From the NCBI GenBank assembly GCA_947651825.1, contig CANTAQ010000004.1:1606-65605 (forward strand): 64,000 nucleotides of DNA. The letters are read 5' to 3'. Each line of letters starts with the position of its first letter. Position 1 is the stretch's first letter. Below the pieces are notes generated by a model. The model was given only the letters and a program-made list of their open reading frames with translations, was not told where the DNA came from and ran no database searches. The stretch comes from an uncultured Clostridium sp. GTDB taxonomy: Bacteria; Bacillota; Clostridia; TANB77; CAG-508. The position numbers were made by a program, and so were the translations under genes. Below, in pieces: positions 1-24,471 of the stretch.

Positions 1-17
1 ATGAAATCTATAAACAA

Positions 18-3000
18 ATGCATTTGGATAATAAATTAGCATCAAATTCAATGTTTGAAAGCTATACAATTGAAGAAATGCGTGCTGTTATGTTTACAAA
101 CATTGATGATGAAGAAATATTATGGTTACGTGATTATTCTGAAAAGAGATTTTCAAATATAGTAGATCGTTTTAACCCATTTAAATATATTAATTATACA
201 TTAGGTTATGGTTATTATAGACCACAATATTATAGTCAAGAGAATTATGAAAAATGGGATAAAAAATATAATTTATCAGAATATAATGTTCCCTATCAAG
301 CAGGAAAACCAAAATTATGGATAGTGTTTGAAGAAGGAGCTGTTTGTGGTGGACTTTCTAAAACAGCAGCTAACCTTTATGGAGTATGGGGATATCCAGC
401 CAAAGTTTTAGGTCAACCAGGACATGCTGCTTATACCTATTTATATAATGCTGGTGGTGGAAATTATGCATGGCAATTATCATACAATGTTGCTTCTACG
501 GCTTGGGCAGCTACTGATGGTGGTGGACGTATGCCAAATAGTTGGGGGAATGGATGGTCTAGTGGTGCAGCAAGTAGAGGTTCATATCATTTCTTATCTC
601 AAGAAGCTCAAAATGAATATGATAAATATGAAAAAGCGGAATTAATATTATTACAAGCAGATACATTTAAAAATGATAAAGAAAAATTAGAACAAATTTA
701 TCGTGATGCTTTAGCAGAGGAAATAATTAATTTTGATGCTTGGATTGGTGTAATAAGTTTATATAATGCAGATGATTCTAAAACTGAAGAAGAAAGAATT
801 GCTCTAGCTGAAGAAATTGCAGAAGTAATGGCTTATCATCCATTACCAATGTATGATTTGACAAAACTTGTTGGTACAAAAATCACATCACCAGAGTACA
901 TGAGTAAAATGATGATGTTACAAGAACAAACTTTGCGTAAAGCAACAAAGGCAACAAGTGCAAATACTTTATATCATAAAGAAGTGCCAATAGTTGCAAA
1001 TGCAATTTTAGGTGTAGTTGATTCTAGTATAGGCAACTTCTCTTTTAGTGGGGCAAATGCTGGTAAAATAATTTTATCAAAACAACTACAGAGTGCTCAA
1101 GTAACTTGGAGTTACAGTTTAGATGGTGGTAATACATGGAACGAATGTTATGAACATTCTGTACAACTTACAACTGAAGAGATTGCAAGTATTAATGTAA
1201 ATGATGATATTAAAATTCATATATCAGGCCTACCAATGACAGAAAAAAACATTTATACAATTGATATTACCAAAAGAACATTTCCAAGTGGAGTAGTTTC
1301 AATTAATGATGAAGAAAATCGTATATTGAATGCAACTAATGATATGGAATGGACGCTAGATCCTAATGGGGAATGGAATTCATTTGCTAATACGAATCCA
1401 ATATTTAATGGAAATAAAAGAGTTTATGTCAGAGTAATTGCTGCTGGAACTCAAGTAGCTAGTGATCCAGTATACTTTACTTTTAAAGAAAATAATTCAG
1501 ACGATACAAAATGGTATATTCAATCTAAAAATTTAAAGGTAGTTGAAGTAAATGGAACAGGTGCAGGAGATTATAAGAATGTTCTTGATGGAAATATTAA
1601 TACCTATTGGCGTTCTAAAGCAGGTATGTTTCCAGCTTATGTAACAATTAAATTAGATGAACCAAGATATATATCAGGATTAGATTATGTACCTGATAAG
1701 AGTGCAGTAAATATTGTTAAAGTTCCTTATGGTATAGCAAAGAAGGTTAACATTTATGTAAGTATGGATGGTACTAACTGGGAATTAGCAGCTAGTAAAG
1801 ATAATTTAGGAGAGAATGTTTCTCTAAAACATATTGATTTACCAGAGCCAAAAAAAGCTTTATATGTTAAATTTGAATGCGAAAGTATTTACCCACCAAT
1901 GGATTCGGCGGCTAAGTATAAAGTATTTACTGTATCTGTTATCAAATTATATGAAAATGTTATCGTAAATGAAATACCAAGAGCAGAGGTAAATTATAAC
2001 ATTACTAATGCAACTAACAAAAATGTAATAGCAGAATTGATTAATGAAACAAGACCTATTACAGTAACAAATAATGAGGGAAATAAGACTTATACATTCA
2101 CAGAAAATGGAGAATTTACCTTTGAATTTGTTGATGAAAATGGAAATAAGGGAAGTACAACAGCAACAGTTAACTGGATAGATAAAACTCCTCCTAAAGC
2201 AAATGTTGAATTTAGTACAACTGAACTAACCAATGAAGATGTAGTAGCAACAATTACCTTTGATAAAGAAAATATAACAATACTTTCAAAAGATATACAG
2301 ATTGCTGAAAATCCAGTAGATAAAAGTAAAACAATTACCTTTGAATCTAATGCATCTTATGAATTAGAATTTTCAGATTCATTAGGAAATATAGGGACTA
2401 AAACAATTGCAGTAGATTGGATTGATAAGGAAGAACCAACAGCAAAACTTACTTATAGTACTACTAATCTTACAGATGAACCAGTTACTGTAACATTAGA
2501 ACCAAGTGAAGAAGTAACTGTTACAAATAATATAGAAAGTGAAGATCCATTAAAATATGAATTTACAGAGAATGGAGAATTTACATTTGAATTTGTAGAT
2601 AAAGCAGGTAACCAAGGAACTGCAACAGCTATTGTAAATTGGATTTCAAAGATGCCAGAATATACATTAACATATTCTACAAGGGAATTGACTGCTCAAG
2701 ATGTTATTGTAACATTGGATATAGAAGAAGGATATAGAATAGTAAGTAATAATGGTTCAAATACTTATACATTTACTGAGAATGGTGAATATAATTTTGA
2801 GTATGTAGATGAAAATGGTAACAAAGGAGTTATAAATGTTAAAGTTGATTGGATTGATAAAGAAGCTCCAACAGGAAGTATTGAATTTAATATAACTTCT
2901 AAAACAAATCAATCTGTTATTGCAACATTAATTCCAAGTGAAGAAGTAACTGTTACAAATAATACAGAAAGTGAAGATCCATTAAAATATGAATTTACAG

Positions 3001-3722
3001 AGAATGGAGAATTTACATTTGAATATGTAGATAAAATAGGACATAGAGGAAGTACAACCGCAATAGTAGATTGGATTGATAAAGTGAAACCACAAGCTAC
3101 ATTAGTTTATGATATTACAGAAGAAACAGAATCAAATGTAATAGTAACAGTAGAATTTGACAAAGAAAATGTTACAATTACAAATAATGATGGAAACAAC
3201 ACATATACATTTACAAAAAATGGAGAATTTAAATTTGAGTTTGTTGATGAAGCAGGAAATACAAACTCTATAACAGCAGAAGTTACATGGATTAAGGAAA
3301 AAGAACCAGAAGAAAATCCTGATGAAGATGATGAAATTACTTCTAGTATATATGAAATAGAGGATAATATAATTAGAAAAGTTCCACTAAATCTTGAAAT
3401 GAGTGAATTTATTAAAAATATACAATCTAAAAAAGATATAATAATTAAAGACAAAAATCAAAATATTTTAAATGAAACATCAAAAATAGGAACAGGAATG
3501 AAAGCTTATGTAGGAAAAAACATATATACTTTTGTGGTAAAAGCAGATATTGACGGAAATGGTAGAATTAATTTAACAGACTTAGCTAAAATATGTTTAC
3601 ACTATATAGACCAAAAACCTTTAGTTGATGAATATTTTGAAGCTGCAGATATAGACAATAATAATAAAATAACTATAACAGATTTAGCAAAGATGCAACT
3701 TTTATTAATAGAAAGTGACTAA
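18..3722 (+). CDS. Large secreted multidomain protein, probably 5'-partial. N-terminal transglutaminase-like Cys/His core, F5/8 type C (discoidin) domain, 6-7 tandem ~85-aa Ig-like repeats, C-terminal type-I dockerin.
   Basis: Reading frame is open back to window position 3 and no signal peptide is visible, so the gene probably starts upstream. Motifs AVCGGLSK...GQPGHAAYTY (TGase-like C/H), GDYKNVLDGNINTYWRS (discoidin), repeats each ending VxWIDK. Dockerin calcium-binding pairs DIDGNGRINLTDLAK and DIDNNNKITITDLAK at nt ~3510-3710. Confidence 0.8.
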   Translation: MHLDNKLASNSMFESYTIEEMRAVMFTNIDDEEILWLRDYSEKRFSNIVDRFNPFKYINYTLGYGYYRPQYYSQENYEKWDKKYNLSEYNVPYQAGKPKLWIVFEEGAVCGGLSKTAANLYGVWGYPAKVLGQPGHAAYTYLYNAGGGNYAWQLSYNVASTAWAATDGGGRMPNSWGNGWSSGAASRGSYHFLSQEAQNEYDKYEKAELILLQADTFKNDKEKLEQIYRDALAEEIINFDAWIGVISLYNADDSKTEEERIALAEEIAEVMAYHPLPMYDLTKLVGTKITSPEYMSKMMMLQEQTLRKATKATSANTLYHKEVPIVANAILGVVDSSIGNFSFSGANAGKIILSKQLQSAQVTWSYSLDGGNTWNECYEHSVQLTTEEIASINVNDDIKIHISGLPMTEKNIYTIDITKRTFPSGVVSINDEENRILNATNDMEWTLDPNGEWNSFANTNPIFNGNKRVYVRVIAAGTQVASDPVYFTFKENNSDDTKWYIQSKNLKVVEVNGTGAGDYKNVLDGNINTYWRSKAGMFPAYVTIKLDEPRYISGLDYVPDKSAVNIVKVPYGIAKKVNIYVSMDGTNWELAASKDNLGENVSLKHIDLPEPKKALYVKFECESIYPPMDSAAKYKVFTVSVIKLYENVIVNEIPRAEVNYNITNATNKNVIAELINETRPITVTNNEGNKTYTFTENGEFTFEFVDENGNKGSTTATVNWIDKTPPKANVEFSTTELTNEDVVATITFDKENITILSKDIQIAENPVDKSKTITFESNASYELEFSDSLGNIGTKTIAVDWIDKEEPTAKLTYSTTNLTDEPVTVTLEPSEEVTVTNNIESEDPLKYEFTENGEFTFEFVDKAGNQGTATAIVNWISKMPEYTLTYSTRELTAQDVIVTLDIEEGYRIVSNNGSNTYTFTENGEYNFEYVDENGNKGVINVKVDWIDKEAPTGSIEFNITSKTNQSVIATLIPSEEVTVTNNTESEDPLKYEFTENGEFTFEYVDKIGHRGSTTAIVDWIDKVKPQATLVYDITEETESNVIVTVEFDKENVTITNNDGNNTYTFTKNGEFKFEFVDEAGNTNSITAEVTWIKEKEPEENPDEDDEITSSIYEIEDNIIRKVPLNLEMSEFIKNIQSKKDIIIKDKNQNILNETSKIGTGMKAYVGKNIYTFVVKADIDGNGRINLTDLAKICLHYIDQKPLVDEYFEAADIDNNNKITITDLAKMQLLLIESD

Positions 3723-3751
3723 TAAATTGAAGTAAGGAGAAATATAAAGGA

Positions 3752-4678
3752 ATGAACAACTTAAAAAAGATAAACATAGTTTTAATTATGATAATATTAA
3801 TTGTATGCATGTTTACAGACAAGACATATGCAGTGATTAATTGCAATGTAAGTTTAAATACATCTAAAGATAAAGTAACATATAAAGAACAGTTTTCTGT
3901 TTATGTTACAATATCTAATTTACAGACAACAAAAGGAATTATTGCAATAGGTGCTATGCTAAACTATGATAGAGACTCTTTAACATTAGTTGATATCAAA
4001 GGGGAAAATAATTGGTCAGATCCTTTTTATGAGGATTCAAATGGAAAACTTACATCAGTTAAAAATAAATTATCAACAAATAATGAAAATGTATTCAAGA
4101 TAATATTTGAGGTAAATGAAAATGCAAAAACTGAAAGTAGTGCATGGATAAAAATAAATAATTTTGAGATATCAGATGGAGAAGAAGAAAATAATTGTGG
4201 TGGAAATTCTGTAAATGTTGCTATAGTAGAACCAGATAATGAGAGTTCAGATAATGATAATGAAGGAAGTAATTCAGGAAACGATAATCAGGGAGATAAC
4301 TCAGGAAATATCAATCAAGGAGGTAACTCAGGGAATATTAATCAAGGAGGTACTAATCAAGGTTCTAACATACCAAGTACCAAACCAAGTAAACCAAATA
4401 CTGGAACTATGTCAAAGCCACCAGTTAATATATCTACAAATGTGCAAGGAGAAGATTTAAACAATGAGGATATATCAAATGATAGTATTAATAATGTAGA
4501 CACAAATAATATAGAAGAAGAGACTTCTATAGATGATGAGAATGTAATAAAAAACAACAATGAATATAACATGAAACCAAAGGAAAGTAAAAGAGTAATA
4601 TATATAATAAGTATCATAACGATAACTGCGATTATAGGAATAGTATTCTTGATAAGAAAAATCTGGAGAACAAACTAA
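3752..4678 (+). CDS. Membrane-anchored cohesin-domain protein (small scaffoldin-like). Signal peptide, cohesin-like beta-sandwich, N/Q/G/S-rich linker, C-terminal TM anchor.
   Basis: RBS AAGGAG before ATG. Region aa ~27-160 (nt ~3830-4230) follows the cohesin pattern (GIIAIGAMLNYDRDSLTLVDI ... VFKIIFEVNENAKTESSAWIKINNFEISDG), comparable to C. thermocellum CipA cohesins. Linker NSGNDNQGDNSGNINQGGNSGNINQGG. C-terminal hydrophobic helix VIYIISIITITAIIGIVFLI then RKIWRTN. Confidence 0.6.
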   Translation: MNNLKKINIVLIMIILIVCMFTDKTYAVINCNVSLNTSKDKVTYKEQFSVYVTISNLQTTKGIIAIGAMLNYDRDSLTLVDIKGENNWSDPFYEDSNGKLTSVKNKLSTNNENVFKIIFEVNENAKTESSAWIKINNFEISDGEEENNCGGNSVNVAIVEPDNESSDNDNEGSNSGNDNQGDNSGNINQGGNSGNINQGGTNQGSNIPSTKPSKPNTGTMSKPPVNISTNVQGEDLNNEDISNDSINNVDTNNIEEETSIDDENVIKNNNEYNMKPKESKRVIYIISIITITAIIGIVFLIRKIWRTN

Positions 4679-4730: not shown

Positions 4731-4914
4731 TTGCAAAGTAAATTTGGGAAAATGAGATTTTTACAATATTAAGCTGTGTGTACTATTGCATCCTACATTT
4801 TAAACATGAAAAATATGGATAATTTGCCAAAATTATGTAAACGTGATATAATAGGAAAGGTAACTCTTGTATACCTGGGCCATTAATTTTAACAGCTTAA
4901 GGAGGGCTAGTAAA

Positions 4915-5388
4915 ATGGAGATGTATGAAGGCAAGGGCTACTGTCCAAACAATGCATTTTGGCAACGTATGGCAAGACAGGAAAATATTTCTCAATTTTG
5001 GGAGGAGACCATGAACCTTTTAGGAGATAGAATAGGGTATATGGTCTACACCAAGGAGGGAAATAATATTGCAGGAGAATGCTATATTGTAGATGCTTTA
5101 ATGGGTGCCAAAGGAAAATTAGGCATTCAAATTGCGTCTGCTCTCAAGAGGATTATTCCGACTTGCGTCTATGCCGAGGTGGGGTGCCCAATTGTGTGTA
5201 CGGACATTTTAAATCCAAATCAACTTCTCTCTAAAGGAGAGATGAGAGATGGTAAGTGGACGTGCCTCGAAAATGGCAAAAAAACGAGCAATGGACAGGA
5301 TGCCACAAACTTCTATGAGGATGAACGCTACAGTGTTATCGTCCAGGAGGGCGAAGGAGAAGTGCGAATTTATCTCTACAAAAAGTAA
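4915..5388 (+). CDS. Small GNAT-like acetyltransferase (tentative), on a locally GC-richer island.
   Basis: RBS AAGGAGGG 9 nt before ATG 4915 (the listed ORF start at 4867 lacks an RBS). Motif KGKLGIQIASALKRI resembles GNAT motif A (Q/R-x-x-G-x-G/A). Composition is visibly GC-richer than the flanks. Confidence 0.4.
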   Translation: MEMYEGKGYCPNNAFWQRMARQENISQFWEETMNLLGDRIGYMVYTKEGNNIAGECYIVDALMGAKGKLGIQIASALKRIIPTCVYAEVGCPIVCTDILNPNQLLSKGEMRDGKWTCLENGKKTSNGQDATNFYEDERYSVIVQEGEGEVRIYLYKK

Positions 5389-5595: not shown

Positions 5596-6621
5596 ATGGA
5601 AAAATTATTACAAATAAAAGATATTGTAAATAATTTTATAAAAGAACATAGAAAAATAACTATGAGAGCATTAGCAGCTCTAATTGTTATTATAACAATA
5701 TTGGTTATTACATCAGCATTGAAGAAAGATAAAATTGGAAATTCAGCAGGAAATTTAATAAATAATAATGGAATATCAGCAACAGAGGGAAAGTGGATTT
5801 ATTATGTGGAATTTGATGATGGTGAGCCATCTGGAATATATAAAGTAAGAAATAGTGGAAGCAAGACAAAGAAAGTAAAAAGTGGATATTTTGAGTATTT
5901 AAATATAATAGACAAGTATATATATTGTCTAGAAAAAGATGAAGACAAAAATCAATATAATTTAGTAAAGATGAAAACAAATGGAAGCAAGAAAGAAACA
6001 TTAGCAAAAAACATAGACTATGCACCAGTAACAGCAACAGCTGGAAGAATATATTACTTTAAAGATAAAAACTTATATAGTATAAAAGATAATGGAAGTG
6101 ATAGACAAAAGATATCAGATAAAAATATTAGTTATTATGAGATTTGTGGAAATATGATGTATTATATTTATGAAAATGACGGAAAAAGTTATATAGCTAA
6201 AATGAAATTAAATGGAAAAAACAATAACGTAAGAATAGGAAAATTAGATGATTCAGAGTATGTAGCGCTTCATGTAAAAGGAAATAAAATATATTATATA
6301 GTTCATGAAGAAGAAAAAACATATAAGTTATATAGAATGAATAAAAACGGAGAAAAAGAAGAAAGAATATATTCTTTTTCAGAAGAGATAGATTATATAA
6401 ATATGCAAGATGATGCAATATATTATGTAGTAAAAGATGGTGGATATAAGATATCTACAATAAACTATAAAGCTGGAAATAAAGGAACTATTAAAAAATT
6501 TGACAGTGAAGTTAAATTTAATATATCAAATAAATGGGTATTTTATGTAACAGAAAACAAAGATAATGAAATTATAATCGAAAGAATAACCATAAAAGGT
6601 GAGAAAGAACAATCATTATAA
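5596..6621 (+). CDS. DUF5050-type beta-propeller repeat protein with N-terminal TM anchor.
   Basis: N-terminal hydrophobic helix. Repeated KIYYI / MMYYIYENDGKSY / IYYVVKDGGYK blades typical of DUF5050, a family common in Clostridia. Confidence 0.5.
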   Translation: MEKLLQIKDIVNNFIKEHRKITMRALAALIVIITILVITSALKKDKIGNSAGNLINNNGISATEGKWIYYVEFDDGEPSGIYKVRNSGSKTKKVKSGYFEYLNIIDKYIYCLEKDEDKNQYNLVKMKTNGSKKETLAKNIDYAPVTATAGRIYYFKDKNLYSIKDNGSDRQKISDKNISYYEICGNMMYYIYENDGKSYIAKMKLNGKNNNVRIGKLDDSEYVALHVKGNKIYYIVHEEEKTYKLYRMNKNGEKEERIYSFSEEIDYINMQDDAIYYVVKDGGYKISTINYKAGNKGTIKKFDSEVKFNISNKWVFYVTENKDNEIIIERITIKGEKEQSL

Positions 6622-22011: not shown

Positions 22012-24471
22012 TTATTTATTGAAATGACCGCAATATTCTTGCCCTTCTAATCTTTTTGAATCTCTAACTGTATTTATAATTTCTTGAATTTGATTTTCAT
22101 CTTCATCTAAAATGGAAATTCTAATAGAATCTACATCATAATTGGTATAATCGAATGATGTGATTTTTGAATTATAAATAGTAGTTATTGTAGATATATT
22201 ATCTGCTACAATTCTAAAATTTAAACCTAATCGGTCTTTTATATAGAATTTTTTATTTGAATTACAAAACTTAGAGCAGTTTTTATAACATTTATTTGAC
22301 TTACCAAGAATACAGTAATTCATTGTCATAAATGGAATCCTACCATAGACCATTAATTCTAGTGGTAAAGAAGATGTTTCTATCAAAGTTTTTGTGTCAA
22401 AATCATTTAATTCAGGTGTTATACAAGTTTCAATAATTCCTTTAGATTTTAAAGTGTGTATCGTATGAATGTTATATACATTTAATGTATAGTTTCCAAG
22501 TAACTCCAATTTATATTTTTTTAGCAACTCTACTTGGTTAATAGAAGATACAACAAAGCCAGCTATTTTAAAAGACTTAACTATAGTATCAAAGTTAATT
22601 TTAATAGTATCTCGTAATATATTTGGCATATAAATATATGTATTAAATGTTTGACATATTGTTTTTAATTTTTCGGAGTATTCTGAAAGTATAAAATATT
22701 TTAAAGGAATGAATAATCTATCAATTCCAGTTAAATTATAATAACTAAAGTTTTCATCTAAGACATTTAGTAATAAATTGATTTTCGGCTTAGAGGCTAA
22801 TTTACTGTTTAATGTATAAAGAGAAGTTAGAAGAGGATTAAATTTTAAATTTCTACTTAAAATTTCTTTTTCTATAATTCTTGACATTAATTCTTCTAAT
22901 GCATTTCTTCTAAGTTCATTTAAACTGCTAACAGGAACAAATAAATTGTCATCTAATTCTAATTCTATATCTTCAAATTGAAATGGTGTATTGCCAGTTT
23001 TAGAAATTTGAGTAATAATTTTTTCTTTTGTAGTTGCTACATTTAGTGCTTCACTTGGGATTACTTCAGATGTAACGGTTACTACTTCATTATAATATAC
23101 AGAATTAATATCATTACAATAAACTTCTAATTTCATAGGGACATTTTTTAAAATATATAATTTTGAGCAAAGCTTTTGTTTCCTAAATTCTTTATCTTCC
23201 TTAAAAGTAGGAGAGATAGAATCATTTAAAGTTTTGCTTTGAAGCTTATAAAGGTTTAATCCAGGCTTAATATTTCCCTTCATTCTTCCAATTGTAATAA
23301 TGTCTCCAACATTAGCCTTTTTAATATTTTGATTATTAGTCATAAGTTCAGAGACAGTGTAAGTATCCGAATTTATACCAACTTTATCTCCAATTTCAAG
23401 GGGAGAAGATGTCTTTAAAGTAATGTAACCTTTTACTGGATTAAACTTTTCTATTTTTCCAAGATAAAAGCCTATATTATTTGGTTTGTCTTGGAAAATA
23501 AGTTCTGTATTTGCAGTGTTATCAAGATGACCATTTGAAAATCCACCACGATTGAAAACTTGAGTTACTTCTTCTAAATCAGACATATTAGTATTTTCAT
23601 TTTTCTTTTCTAATTCTTTAGAAATAATATCTAAAATTTGTTCAGTAGAAAGATTAGGATTTTCTAAAGTTATATCTATATATTTACGGTAAAATTTCGT
23701 AATAATTCCAACATATTCAGGAGATTTTAGGCGACCTTCAATTTTAAAACATTTAACTCCAGCACGAATTAATTCAGGGAGATATTTAATAGCGTTTAAG
23801 TCACGAGGACTTAATAAATGGCCTTTATCTAAAGTATTGTTTTTTTCATCAATTAAAGTGTATGGGAGTCTACAAGGTTGAGCACAAAGCCCACGATTGC
23901 CAGATCTTCCTCCAATTATACTGGAAAATAAACATTGACCAGAATAACATATACAAAGAGCACCATGAATAAAAGTCTCAATTTCAACTTTTGTATTTTT
24001 ACAGATATCTTTAATTTCATTTATAGAAAGCTCACGAGAAAGTACTACTCTTTGAACTCCCATGTTTTCTAATTGCTTAACTCCAGTTAAGTTATGAGTA
24101 GTCATTTGGGTGCTGGCATGTACAGGTATTTCTGGATAATTTTTGATAAGATATTCTAATAATCCTAAATCTTGAATAATAATAGCATCTGCTCCAAAAT
24201 TATATACTTTTATGGCAAGCTTTACAGCATCTTCAAATTCTTCGTTTTTAATTAATATGTTTAAAGTGACATGTACTTTAACATTTCTAAGTTTTGCATA
24301 TTTAATTGCTTCTTTTAAAGTTTCATCATCAAAGTTTTTAGCTCTGGCACGTGCATTGAAACTATCTGTACCGAGGTACACACTGTCTGCACCATTTTGA
24401 ACAGCAGCTTTTAAACATTCAAAATCTCCACAAGGAGCAAGTAATTCTGGTTTTTCCATAAAATTCTCCAT
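22012..24471 (-). CDS. U32 family peptidase (collagenase-like, long form).
   Basis: N-terminal ELLAPCGDFECLKAAVQNGADSVYLG, typical of peptidase U32. Confidence 0.85.
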   Translation of the reverse strand: MENFMEKPELLAPCGDFECLKAAVQNGADSVYLGTDSFNARARAKNFDDETLKEAIKYAKLRNVKVHVTLNILIKNEEFEDAVKLAIKVYNFGADAIIIQDLGLLEYLIKNYPEIPVHASTQMTTHNLTGVKQLENMGVQRVVLSRELSINEIKDICKNTKVEIETFIHGALCICYSGQCLFSSIIGGRSGNRGLCAQPCRLPYTLIDEKNNTLDKGHLLSPRDLNAIKYLPELIRAGVKCFKIEGRLKSPEYVGIITKFYRKYIDITLENPNLSTEQILDIISKELEKKNENTNMSDLEEVTQVFNRGGFSNGHLDNTANTELIFQDKPNNIGFYLGKIEKFNPVKGYITLKTSSPLEIGDKVGINSDTYTVSELMTNNQNIKKANVGDIITIGRMKGNIKPGLNLYKLQSKTLNDSISPTFKEDKEFRKQKLCSKLYILKNVPMKLEVYCNDINSVYYNEVVTVTSEVIPSEALNVATTKEKIITQISKTGNTPFQFEDIELELDDNLFVPVSSLNELRRNALEELMSRIIEKEILSRNLKFNPLLTSLYTLNSKLASKPKINLLLNVLDENFSYYNLTGIDRLFIPLKYFILSEYSEKLKTICQTFNTYIYMPNILRDTIKINFDTIVKSFKIAGFVVSSINQVELLKKYKLELLGNYTLNVYNIHTIHTLKSKGIIETCITPELNDFDTKTLIETSSLPLELMVYGRIPFMTMNYCILGKSNKCYKNCSKFCNSNKKFYIKDRLGLNFRIVADNISTITTIYNSKITSFDYTNYDVDSIRISILDEDENQIQEIINTVRDSKRLEGQEYCGHFNK

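Follow-up and report, generated by a model that had tools for sequence, protein, structure and literature searches.

The window, by which we mean the whole 64-kb stretch of DNA analysed, carries near its beginning two co-directional genes, and these genes and all of their features lie on the + strand. Gene 1 (ORF1, 3..3722, with its stop at 3720-3722) comprises the last 1239 codons and the stop codon of a 1608-aa secreted multidomain protein, and gene 2 (ORF2, 3752..4678, with its ATG at 3752) encodes a 308-aa anchor protein consisting of a signal peptide, a cohesin, a linker, a TM helix and a basic tail. The distance between the genes, given as 30 bp in the initial annotation, is 29 nt, and a ribosome-binding site for gene 2 (AAGGAG, 3734..3739) could be read directly within it. 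Reading of the 29-nt gap and a consensus scan revealed neither a promoter nor a terminator between gene 1 and gene 2, and the first strong promoter-like site follows gene 2 (4824-4852). Because neither element separates the two genes, they likely form one operon. The pair is flanked by housekeeping genes (priA/def/fmt upstream; gatA/gatB, mfd, PBPs and polC downstream). The 64 kb hold one dockerin, in gene 1, and one cohesin, in gene 2, both scoring over the Pfam curated cut-offs, which bears out the adjoining dockerin gene and cohesin-anchor gene first described.

The start of ORF1 had been placed at nt 18, which proved incorrect, the frame being open right up to the edge of the window, from nt 3 onwards. 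The full gene 1 product of 1608 aa came from near-identical contigs in metagenomes, which have 0-1 mismatches to the first 4678 nt of the window. Its last 1239 residues are identical to the window translation; the 5' 369 codons lie upstream of the window and encode a signal/anchor sequence and an NPCBM (CBM51) domain. The initial annotation had looked to this upstream sequence for the true N-terminus and signal peptide, and the N-terminus was found together with the signal/anchor sequence, but its hydrophobic segment shows no clear signal-peptidase site. For that reason the gene 1 protein might already be held in the membrane via its N-terminus, a point that counts against the explanation we favour below. 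The CBM51 domain scored 84 bits, over the Pfam curated cut-off, and matched 2vmg among PDB sequences (E = 5.5e-12), and the AF2 model of this part matched the solved CBM51 structures 2vmg/7jrm with Foldseek TM-scores of 0.84-0.87.

Downstream of a central domain considered below, gene 1 encodes two Ig-like beta domains (1035..1457), with beta strands in the AF2 model of a homologue and a weak likeness to DUF4073/CHB_HEX_C (DUF4073 sub-threshold, 27.7 bits vs 28.8). These are followed by the F5/8 type C (discoidin, CBM32-type) carbohydrate-binding domain that had been recognized initially (1560..1886; PF00754, 54.2 bits vs a cut-off of 28.2); the Pfam matches to this domain span 54-66 bits, and its PDB sequence matches are to C. 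perfringens CBM32 modules. The multiple Ig-like repeats also noted at the outset were resolved by a motif scan into six tandem copies of ~75 aa (1980..3317; pattern TYTFTENGEFTFEFVDxxGNxG...V.WIDK), with weak Pfam matches of the Big_3_2/Big type only, and this array is probably a stalk. A conserved module of ~65 aa without a Pfam family comes next, in an X-module-like position (3339..3533). This module also stands before the dockerin in the paralogous cargo proteins read at their C-termini, a 1445-aa triad cargo being the exception.

The dockerin itself (3543..3695) consists of two segments, each a calcium-binding loop followed by a helix, as required of the duplicated EF-hand-like pattern D-x-D-x-[DN]-x-x-[IV]-x-x-x-D. 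The first 12-residue loop, DIDGNGRINLTD, is followed by LAKICLHYI and the second, DIDNNNKITITD, also of 12 residues, by LAKMQLLLI; the two lie 34 residues apart, and a six-frame scan of the 64 kb gave no further calcium-loop motif of this type. Dockerin_1 (PF00404) scored 25.7 bits with the window ORF and 25.2 bits with the full-length protein against a cut-off of 22.9, and this margin of 2-3 bits was likewise counted against the favoured explanation. Matches to solved dockerins were weak (8x39, E = 1.3e-6; 1ohz, E = 0.028). The C-terminal dockerin of the initial annotation thus stands, but its designation as type I cannot be asserted from a Dockerin_1 match, since this Pfam model does not separate types I, II and III, and X-modules precede types II and III, as the conserved module does here.

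The architecture assigned earlier to the gene 2 product was confirmed by Pfam, hydropathy and composition. A signal peptide, MNNLKKINIVLIMIILIVCMFTDKTYA (3752..3832; hydropathy), ends in TYA, within a conserved K-T-Y-A end, and leads into the cohesin domain (3833..4237; PF00963, 34.8 bits vs 24.1, E = 2.3e-8, aa 45-147), on whose detection the earlier reading had been made to depend. The family HMM covers aa 29-162, and 52 of the 54 clusters of ORF2 homologues, which are of ~300 aa, carry a precomputed Pfam Cohesin assignment. No solved cohesin sequence was matched significantly by the ORF2 cohesin, the closest being R. flavefaciens ScaC (E = 0.039). The cohesin is followed by a low-complexity N/S/G/D/E/P linker of ~120 aa (4238..4594; 29 N, 15 S, 12 G), presumed to be a wall-spanning tether, and by a C-terminal TM helix, VIYIISIITITAIIGIVFLI, with the basic tail RKIWRTN (4595..4675; hydropathy).

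The window opens inside a conserved domain of ~520 aa, our candidate catalytic module, of which the C-terminal ~376 residues are encoded at 3..1130 and match no Pfam family. The domain is built of helical regions, an alpha-beta core with the Cys and His, and a helical tail with weak TPR-like matches, and AF2 models of homologues have pLDDT values of 80-84. Alignment of 150 family representatives revealed a conserved Cys within GAVCGG, the putative nucleophile (Cys484, codon 345..347; Cys in 146/150), a His within a near-invariant Q-P-G-H (GQPGH, His510, codon 423..425; His in 149/150) and an Asn within WQLSYNV, the putative third triad residue (Asn531, codon 486..488; Asn in 137/150, the local alignment being ambiguous by one residue), where the family as a whole has W-x-[IL]-x-N-[DN]. 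The Cys and His are 26 residues apart and the His and Asn ~20, and in two AF2 models of homologues the Cys starts a helix with a three-stranded sheet after it. The order Cys, His, Asn in the alignment and the position of the Cys at a helix N-terminus in the models are those expected of a papain/transglutaminase-like fold. With a profile that runs from the CBM51 through the ~520-aa domain into the first part of the Ig-like region, 1242 clusters were retrieved at E<=1e-3, and 391 at the stricter E<=1e-30. Distant homologues extend to Bacillus mycoides and Enterococcus faecalis plasmids. NPCBM was present in 34/34 full-length members and F5/8C in 33/34; a known catalytic Pfam domain was found in none of the 34, nor in two members of 3.8-4.1 kaa.

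The core had been described as transglutaminase-like. The Cys/His motif (GAVCGG ... GQPGH) on which this was based is present and strongly conserved, but the transglutaminase family was not established by the searches: neither Transglut_core nor another Pfam family matched the core even at E<=1, no significant PDB-sequence or Foldseek match was obtained, and a first profile-profile comparison (hhalign) yielded nothing at the Cys/His motif. Among 30 family core segments, two weakly matched Transglut_core (best E = 0.084) and two Acetyltransf_2 (best E = 0.17), all sub-threshold, and hhalign placed the family Cys on the Cys of Pfam-positive Transglut_core proteins (P = 0.032). Transglut_core and Acetyltransf_2 are both members of the papain-like clan. 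A transglutaminase-like identity stays plausible, given the near-invariance of Cys, His and Asn across the 150 relatives and the agreement of the weak profile hints.

It is also possible, if doubtful, that the central domain is no cysteine enzyme and is instead a new helical domain of GH or lyase type that relies on conserved acidic residues (IDDEEI, VFEEG), or else has no catalytic role and serves as a scaffold or adhesin, the protein then being a surface lectin. The domain is mostly helical with its TPR-like tail, Foldseek shows no papain- or TGase-like neighbour, the two acidic motifs are likewise highly conserved, two family members have Asn where the His is expected, and the combination of CBM51 and CBM32 is typical of C. 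perfringens glycoside hydrolases. However, a purely structural role would hardly account for a single unpaired near-invariant Cys beside a His and an Asn that are near-invariant too, the triad spacing as well as its order and the helix N-terminal Cys correspond to papain/TGase-fold triads, and the sole recurrent weak Pfam matches are those to Transglut_core and Acetyltransf_2, with hhalign pairing Cys with Cys. Gene 1 cargo homologues end in LPKTG in one case and in a dockerin in another, and because of these endings surface attachment is a theme common to the homologues, with the dockerin as one route.

The gene arrangement recurs in related loci from uncultured gut Clostridia genomes. In 24 of 31 such loci, the small gene for the cohesin anchor has a dockerin gene as its immediate upstream neighbour, the pairing is found in at least seven distinct pair types, and the orthologous pair is kept in eight GTDB species representatives. 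This strengthens the earlier notion of an enzyme-like dockerin protein that would dock on an adjacent membrane-tethered single cohesin. Dockerin distances correlated with those of the adjoining cohesins (r = 0.95 over 25 pairs; 0/5000 permutations reached r), a correlation that is co-divergence and not contact and is expected of any co-inherited adjacent genes. The dockerin signature differs from one pair type to the next, being ICLHYI/MQLLLI here and K-L-H/K-L in the others. The genomes with the orthologous pair hold at least two further cohesin loci, one being an orphan anchor 51-57% identical to the gene 2 product and another encoding a 317-aa cohesin+dockerin adaptor. The term minimal two-component module falls short of the system, as the related genomes have at least three cohesin loci, cohesin+dockerin adaptors among them. 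Paralogue-like cargo neighbours in other MAGs include Pfam-positive Transglut_core-dockerin proteins, and the cargo of the lineage falls into essentially two families, neither with GH domains.

These additional loci bear on whether the adjacency reflects co-regulation only, with the gene 1 dockerin binding another cohesin and the gene 2 cohesin other dockerins in a small promiscuous network. Any of the two or more further cohesin loci, the orphan anchor and the adaptor included, could be the partner, and the many dockerins of Limousia and R. flavefaciens are served by a small number of cohesins. We nevertheless consider such a network unlikely, given that each pair type has a signature of its own, that the dockerins diverge in step with the adjoining cohesins and that the pairing is kept across the seven or more pair types.

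With respect to the anchor, the initial annotation invoked neither sortase nor SLH attachment. This is true of the ORF2 sequence itself, in which no LPxTG precedes the helix (the residues there are NMKPKESKR, with the helix and basic tail present) and no SLH domain was matched in Pfam at E<=1; it does not extend to distant anchor relatives, which in the alignment end in LPKTG/LPQTG/LPKAG/IPKTG/IPHAG followed by a helix and a basic tail (P0079/P0081, with LPQTG, plus L019, L020, L029, L030 and L033). The ORF2 C-terminus has the topology of a sortase sorting signal without LPxTG, and since the distant relatives have LPKTG-like motifs in the equivalent place, its TM anchor would most simply be a sorting signal that has lost the motif. 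The same topology and the same motifs in distant members could instead mean that the gene 2 product is still processed by sortase through a non-canonical motif and sits covalently on peptidoglycan, the helix being only transient. A candidate is the KPNTG of a semi-conserved KPNTGT in the linker (4391-4408); K-P-x-T-G-T occurs in 13/23 aligned anchor members, and clostridial sortases accept (S/P)PxTG. This motif, however, lies ~60 residues from the helix, far beyond canonical spacing, K-P-x-T-G-T is absent from several close relatives, and no sortase signature (TLxTC) was found in the 64-kb window, so that we hold sortase processing to be quite improbable.

That the two modules do not interact at all, the dockerin being a calcium-binding stabiliser and the cohesin a generic beta-sandwich, is a very remote prospect: the Pfam scores are modest on both sides and cohesin and dockerin modules outside cellulosomes are widely reported with no partner known, but adjacency that is repeated, with strand conserved, across many pair types would hardly arise unless the two modules were functionally linked, and the 64-kb window has just one of each module.

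Taken together, the domain identities, the topology, the conservation and the recurrent gene pairing lead us to favour, as the probable role of this operon, the surface display of a cysteine enzyme targeted to host glycans, through a dedicated one-to-one cohesin-dockerin pair, with binding, glycan specificity and catalysis predicted. The cargo comprises, from N to C terminus, a signal/anchor sequence, CBM51, the ~520-aa Cys-His-Asn domain, two Ig-like domains, the CBM32-type discoidin domain, the stalk of six Ig-like repeats, the pre-dockerin module and the dockerin. The gene 2 product would be an exported cohesin held by its C-terminal helix in the cytoplasmic membrane, the disordered linker of ~120 residues passing through the wall. 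Calcium-dependent binding of dockerin to cohesin would fix the large protein on the cell surface, the two carbohydrate-binding modules would grip galactose/GalNAc-type host glycans, e.g. mucin or blood-group structures, and the glycoprotein would be acted on by the Cys/His domain, for which a cysteine hydrolase or amidase of papain/transglutaminase fold is the likeliest identity. More speculatively, the always CBM51/CBM32-flanked ~520-aa domain may define a large unrecognised Firmicutes family of glycan-guided cysteine enzymes (candidates being a glycoprotease directed at mucin or a PNGase-like amidase with a fold remotely of the papain/transglutaminase type), displayed in uncultured gut Clostridia by private co-duplicating cohesin-dockerin pairs whose anchors have turned from a sortase signal to a plain membrane anchor, an idea we put forward only tentatively.

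Display by a single-cohesin anchor has precedents. ScaE of R. flavefaciens is a single-cohesin surface anchor with its gene in the same cluster as those of its partners ScaB and CttA (PMC2930009), and cSca5 of Limousia pullorum is an equivalent anchoring scaffoldin, also with a single cohesin (PMC12997984). Like these, the gene 2 product is small and exported; it carries a single cohesin at its N-terminus, joined by a linker to a C-terminal signal for surface attachment, and is predicted to receive the C-terminal dockerin of a larger protein. ScaE and cSca5 differ in having a canonical LPxTG and being sortase-linked to peptidoglycan, whereas the helix of the gene 2 product is not preceded by such a motif. 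ScaE holds an entire multi-scaffoldin complex, but the gene 2 product seems to have as its partner just the one cargo encoded by the adjoining upstream gene, and the gene 2 cohesin resembles the solved ruminococcal cohesins only negligibly in sequence (E = 0.039).

In C. perfringens, host-glycan-degrading enzymes (NagH, NagJ, NanJ and others) form cohesin(X82)-dockerin complexes (PMC12997984), which resemble the present pair in being non-cellulosomal, from low-GC Clostridia and built of very large secreted cargo with CBM32, CBM51 and Ig-like modules for host glycans. There, however, cohesin and dockerin are both on glycoside hydrolases and no dedicated anchor is involved; here a membrane anchor of its own carries the cohesin, and the gene 1 cargo has no recognisable GH domain. 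The Limousia mucinolysome (Akresi et al., Gut Microbes 2026) is likewise a cohesin-dockerin assembly of gut Firmicutes, cellulosome-like in kind, with a proposed mucin target, and features dockerin peptidases and a single-cohesin wall anchor, but it has multi-cohesin scaffoldins and 10-22 dockerin-bearing GHs, whereas the present lineage has single cohesins, gene-adjacent one-to-one pairs and adaptors of one cohesin and one dockerin. A cellulosome or mucinolysome is marked by a multi-cohesin scaffoldin and dockerin-bearing GHs; none of the 31 related loci encodes a protein with more than one cohesin, and scans of the gene 1 cargo, 34 relatives and two giant relatives gave no GH domain.

A transglutaminase-like dockerin cargo, initially considered atypical, has a precedent in the ten dockerin proteins with transglutaminase-like modules of R. 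flavefaciens FD-1 (PMC2930009). ORF01263-01266 and RflaF_05439 (NlpC/P60-like module) of that strain share with gene 1 the use of cysteine-enzyme-fold modules, putative here, as dockerin cargo, and a crystal structure of a cellulosome-related papain-like module is reported (PMC3573020). The FD-1 modules are recognised by standard domain models, unlike the gene 1 Cys/His domain, which in addition sits in a fixed CBM51 plus CBM32 cassette. Closest in setting are the Transglut_core-Ig-cohesin-dockerin proteins of related MAGs (L021, L034 and L036), which occupy the same slot directly upstream of a homologous cohesin anchor and have the same pre-dockerin module and dockerin type as gene 1. They differ in an N-terminal enzyme of another family (Transglut_core at 26-29 bits, over the cut-off), and some have an internal cohesin; neither BLAST nor the first hhalign run detected similarity between them and the gene 1 Cys/His domain, and a later hhalign gave P = 0.032 only. 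The display principle is already known, the gene pairing is real and conserved, and the enzyme-like core that would be displayed belongs to a large uncharacterised family.

The reading frame of the large dockerin protein (gene 1), first called at 18..3722 of the window on the same strand as the gene for the 308-aa cohesin protein (gene 2, 3752..4678), was already open from nt 3 and was cut by the window edge, so that the start at nt 18 proposed in the initial annotation was wrong. An exact look-up of the gene 2 protein matched 213 index blocks, and 21 contigs were examined; its protein cluster is on record for 121 contigs. A look-up by cluster gave only the name “hypothetical protein.” In the loci returned, gene 1 encoded 1608 aa in four and 1605 aa in two, and the four 1608-aa loci differed from the first 4678 nt of the window by 0–1 mismatches. 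The final 1239 residues of gene 1 in one retrieved locus (L001) equal the window translation. The recovered N terminus carries a hydrophobic signal/anchor segment (MKIKIKKNFFVAFCVIFLLIFCIIV) and an NPCBM/NEW2 domain (84 bits, Pfam). By sequence and predicted fold this domain is a CBM51: it matched the CBM51 of a C. perfringens GH95 in a PDB sequence search (E = 5.5e-12), and the AF2 model of a 72%-identical homologue matched the CBM51 fold with TM-scores of 0.84–0.87 relative to the target (Foldseek).

The F5/8 type C domain, Ig-like repeats and dockerin that had been read from the DNA in gene 1 were all recovered. Pfam scored F5/8 type C at 54.2 bits (cut-off, 28.2) and Dockerin_1 at 25.7 bits (cut-off, 22.9), a motif scan found six Ig-like repeats of ∼75 aa, and the two calcium-loop motifs of the dockerin were the sole ones across the six frames of the 64 kb. 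A conserved module of ∼65 aa precedes the dockerin and is common to most of the paralogous cargo proteins read, the 1445-aa triad cargo excepted. In gene 2, the predicted cohesin (34.8 bits; cut-off, 24.1), signal peptide (ending in TYA), low-complexity linker (120 residues, N/S/G-rich) and single C-terminal transmembrane helix, followed by RKIWRTN, likewise held up. The cohesin-dockerin gene pair is a real, conserved feature, and the domains originally assigned to it were largely right.

Searched against the PDB, gene 2 gave nothing with phmmer, and its cohesin profile matched only ScaC (E = 0.039). The claim that the anchor uses neither LPxTG nor SLH was correct for gene 2 itself, which had no SLH match and no LPxTG ahead of the helix; LPxTG was also absent from all close relatives in the alignment, and the window held no sortase (TLxTC) and no other LPxTG protein. 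In distant members of the anchor family, the C terminus consists of a sortase-type motif, a helix and a basic tail (LPQTG in P0079 and P0081, LPKTG in L019, LPKAG in L020, IPKTG in L029, IPHAG in L030 and L033). The C-terminal helix of gene 2 thus most plausibly derives from a sorting signal; it would have lost the cleavage motif and now serve as a membrane anchor. A semi-conserved K-P-x-T-G-T in the linker (window 4391–4408; residues 214–219), present in 13 of 23 aligned family members, resembles the xPxTG sortase motif; it lies ∼60 residues 5′ of the helix, too far for a canonical sorting signal.

The two genes are separated by 29 nt, with AAGGAG 12 nt ahead of the gene 2 ATG. A consensus scan detected neither a promoter nor a terminator in this gap; a strong promoter-like site (TTGCCA-17-TATAAT, 11/12) first occurs beyond gene 2, at 4824–4852. 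Because of the short gap with its AAGGAG and the lack of an internal promoter or terminator, a single operon is the simplest reading of the sequence. The G+C content of the window is 25–32%. On longer contigs the upstream neighbors are priA, def, fmt, cinA and a Mur ligase gene, and the downstream neighbors include a uridine-kinase-like gene, an htpX-type peptidase gene, genes for penicillin-binding proteins, gatA/gatB, mfd and polC. These housekeeping surroundings bear out the view that the locus is no polysaccharide-degradation cluster; together with the absence of a GH domain they led us to reject a cellulosome or polysaccharide-utilization locus, and a phage or mobile-element origin was rejected on the identical conserved chromosomal neighborhood in 6/6 contigs.

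Several other features of the neighborhood deserve mention. The promoter-like site precedes a gene (4867–5388, +) for a cytosolic-looking protein of 157–173 aa that belongs to no family; this gene and the next (5596–6621, +), encoding a 341-aa protein with an N-terminal transmembrane segment and a DUF5050 β-propeller, lie directly 3′ of the pair and are kept alongside it in near-identical contigs. Farther downstream, an 896-aa protein containing four Big_2 domains (9978–12,668, +) is kept in 6/6 contigs; the signal at its N terminus (MNKGKQRGITLIALIITIIVMLIL) looks to be of the prepilin type (class III) and not of the Sec type. An 819-aa U32 “collagenase”-family peptidase with DUF3656 (22,012–24,471, −) is potentially directed at host matrix. 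A tRNA scan of the window found none; in L001, an intergenic stretch just 5′ of full-length gene 1 and upstream of the window (4925–5015) looks tRNA-like by eye (...GGTTCGAGTCCC...CACCA).

Scanning one genome per GTDB species with an anchor-family profile yielded 31 loci, all from uncultured Clostridia MAGs (one labeled Lachnospiraceae) and many from mouse gut catalogues, judging by isolate names. With cohesins and dockerins called by family HMMs, a dockerin gene lay directly 5′, on the same strand, of a 230–323-aa signal-cohesin-linker-helix gene in 24 of the 31. At least seven pair types occur among related loci. The cargo of the window's type is 1603–1611 aa long (eight loci); other types carry CBM51-Cys/His-CBM32-dockerin paralogues of 1271–1317 and ∼1993 aa, Pfam-positive Transglut_core-Ig-(cohesin)-dockerin proteins of ∼1250–1290 aa, or an Ig-dockerin protein of 551 aa. 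One type is a triad that combines a 314–317-aa cohesin+dockerin adaptor, a 229–230-aa cohesin anchor and a 1445–1582-aa CBM51-Cys/His-CBM32-dockerin protein; genomes holding the orthologous pair also hold this triad, and some additionally hold an orphan anchor.

Distances between dockerins and between their adjacent cohesins were strongly correlated (r = 0.95 over 25 non-identical pairs), and none of 5000 permutations reached this value. The correlation shows the predicted pairs to duplicate and diverge as units; it is no proof of contact, because adjacent genes have a common history. The window dockerin bears the signature I-C-L-H-Y-I and M-Q-L-L-L-I, whereas K-L-H and K-L are found elsewhere. 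Some dockerin proteins of related MAGs contain an internal cohesin (L036, 907–4650 and 4820–10,801; L021, 5259–9122; L022, 9019–9963), examples being a Transglut_core-Ig-cohesin-dockerin protein, a 1993-aa CBM51...3×F5/8C-cohesin-dockerin protein and the 314-aa adaptor; multi-level assembly is therefore implied in the lineage. Neither a multi-cohesin scaffoldin nor GH cargo was seen in the related loci.

The ∼520-aa central domain of gene 1 lies between CBM51 and the Ig-like domains and includes what had been called a transglutaminase-like Cys/His core. The conserved Cys/His motifs are there; the transglutaminase label is unproven, with no significant match in Pfam, PDB or Foldseek searches. 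The core region matched no Pfam or NCBIfam family even at E ≤ 1, and the window proteins gave no transglutaminase match in either database and no NCBIfam family of any kind. Nothing in the PDB matched the core as a single protein, a full-domain profile or a core profile, and PDB sequence searches with gene 1 returned nothing beyond CBMs, dockerins and, weakly, designed TPR proteins. All structure models are of homologues 64–72% identical to gene 1 rather than of gene 1 itself. Since Foldseek with the model of an 804-aa homologue was swamped by its CBM51 module, a domain-only model of a 64%-identical homologue was made (AF2; pLDDT 84, pTM 0.87), and this had no significant PDB neighbor. In both AF2 models the Cys starts a helix, a three-stranded sheet comes next, and helical regions flank this part; the C-terminal helices of the domain have a TPR-like signature.

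When 30 diverse core segments were compared with Pfam, only Transglut_core (2/30; best E = 0.084) and arylamine N-acetyltransferase (2/30; best E = 0.17), both members of the papain-like clan, matched more than once. Whole-domain hhalign against Pfam-positive transglutaminase dockerin proteins gave only a meaningless match; local alignment of the core with the Pfam-positive Transglut_core proteins of related loci (P = 0.032) paired Cys with Cys, G-Y-P with D-I-P and W-x-L with W-Y-A-V-D. These hints are consistent and individually weak, and they tip the balance slightly toward a cysteine enzyme of the papain/transglutaminase type.

A profile over the CBM51, central domain and Ig-like start matched 1242 clusters at 50% identity with E ≤ 1e-3, the weaker of which may include CBM51-only proteins, and 391 with E ≤ 1e-30; word-indexed searches, at 27 matches or 8 fragments, badly under-count this family. 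Of the best 150 members, 146 kept the Cys of G-x-V-C-G-G-[IL]-S-K, 149 the His of Q-P-G-H and 137 the Asn of W-x-[IL]-x-N-[DN]. Two homologues, P0003 and P0004, have GQPGN in place of GQPGH and may be inactive variants or reflect sequencing differences; their close relative P0009, a cargo homologue ending in LPKTG, has the His. NPCBM was present in 34 of 34 full-length members, F5/8C in 33 and a dockerin in 5. Because a known catalytic domain was found in none of the 34, the central domain is, on domain content, the only candidate active module of the family; in two members of 3.8–4.1 kaa the sole additions are Ig, LRR and repeat domains.

Distant homologues (22–25% identity) retaining all three core motifs are encoded by plasmids of Bacillus mycoides, whose copies bear the annotation “discoidin domain-containing protein,” and of Enterococcus faecalis, whose plasmid records carry no annotation. 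The examples from these cultured Bacilli, on B. mycoides DSM 2048 plasmid NZ_CP093292.1 (L038, 4371–6767) and E. faecalis plasmid LR962562.1 (L039, 3342–5765), show GGVCG..SK, GQPGHCA and LG-N/Y-D, and the B. mycoides gene adjoins three HBL/NHE enterotoxin-family genes.

We infer the following mechanism. Sec would export both proteins; the C-terminal helix would keep protein 2 in the membrane, its disordered linker taking the cohesin across the wall, where it would bind the dockerin of protein 1 with calcium. The six Ig-like repeats would form a stalk, CBM51 and CBM32 would bind host glycans of the Gal/GalNAc type, and the Cys/His domain might modify or cleave the bound glycoprotein.

Cohesin-dockerin assembly was for a long time regarded as a plant-fiber specialization. 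Amylosomes, the C. perfringens enzyme complexes and the 2026 Limousia mucinolysome reveal a general surface-assembly device of gut Firmicutes, here in its simplest layout of one cargo and an adjacent anchor, repeated as co-diverging pairs. Nothing in the locus overturns current understanding; its main value lies in an unstudied, widespread Cys/His-CBM51-CBM32 family and a tidy collection of cohesin/dockerin pairs. The pairs offer a convenient natural set, possibly orthogonal, for specificity studies and protein engineering, and within the anchor family sortase-type anchoring can be seen to give way to anchoring by a membrane helix. The cargo family combines host-glycan-binding modules with no known catalytic domain, which makes it a specific candidate for an enzyme activity new to the mucus interface.

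Single-cohesin anchors have been published for R. flavefaciens (PMC2930009) and Limousia (PMC12997984), and ScaE and cSca5 of these organisms share the architecture of gene 2 except for the LPxTG that gene 2 lacks. Also published are the Limousia mucinolysome and the non-cellulosomal cohesin-dockerin systems on host-glycan enzymes of C. perfringens (PMC12997984). A transglutaminase-like module, originally described as atypical cargo, is indeed uncommon and is not new, since dockerin proteins with such modules are on record in R. flavefaciens FD-1 (PMC2930009); the title of a further paper names the structure of a papain-like cellulosome-related module from R. flavefaciens (PMC3573020). Unlike the published systems, the loci seen here have no multi-cohesin scaffoldin or GH cargo, anchor by a membrane helix, place one cargo next to one anchor in repeated, co-diverging pairs, and carry as their main cargo an uncharacterized Cys/His family.
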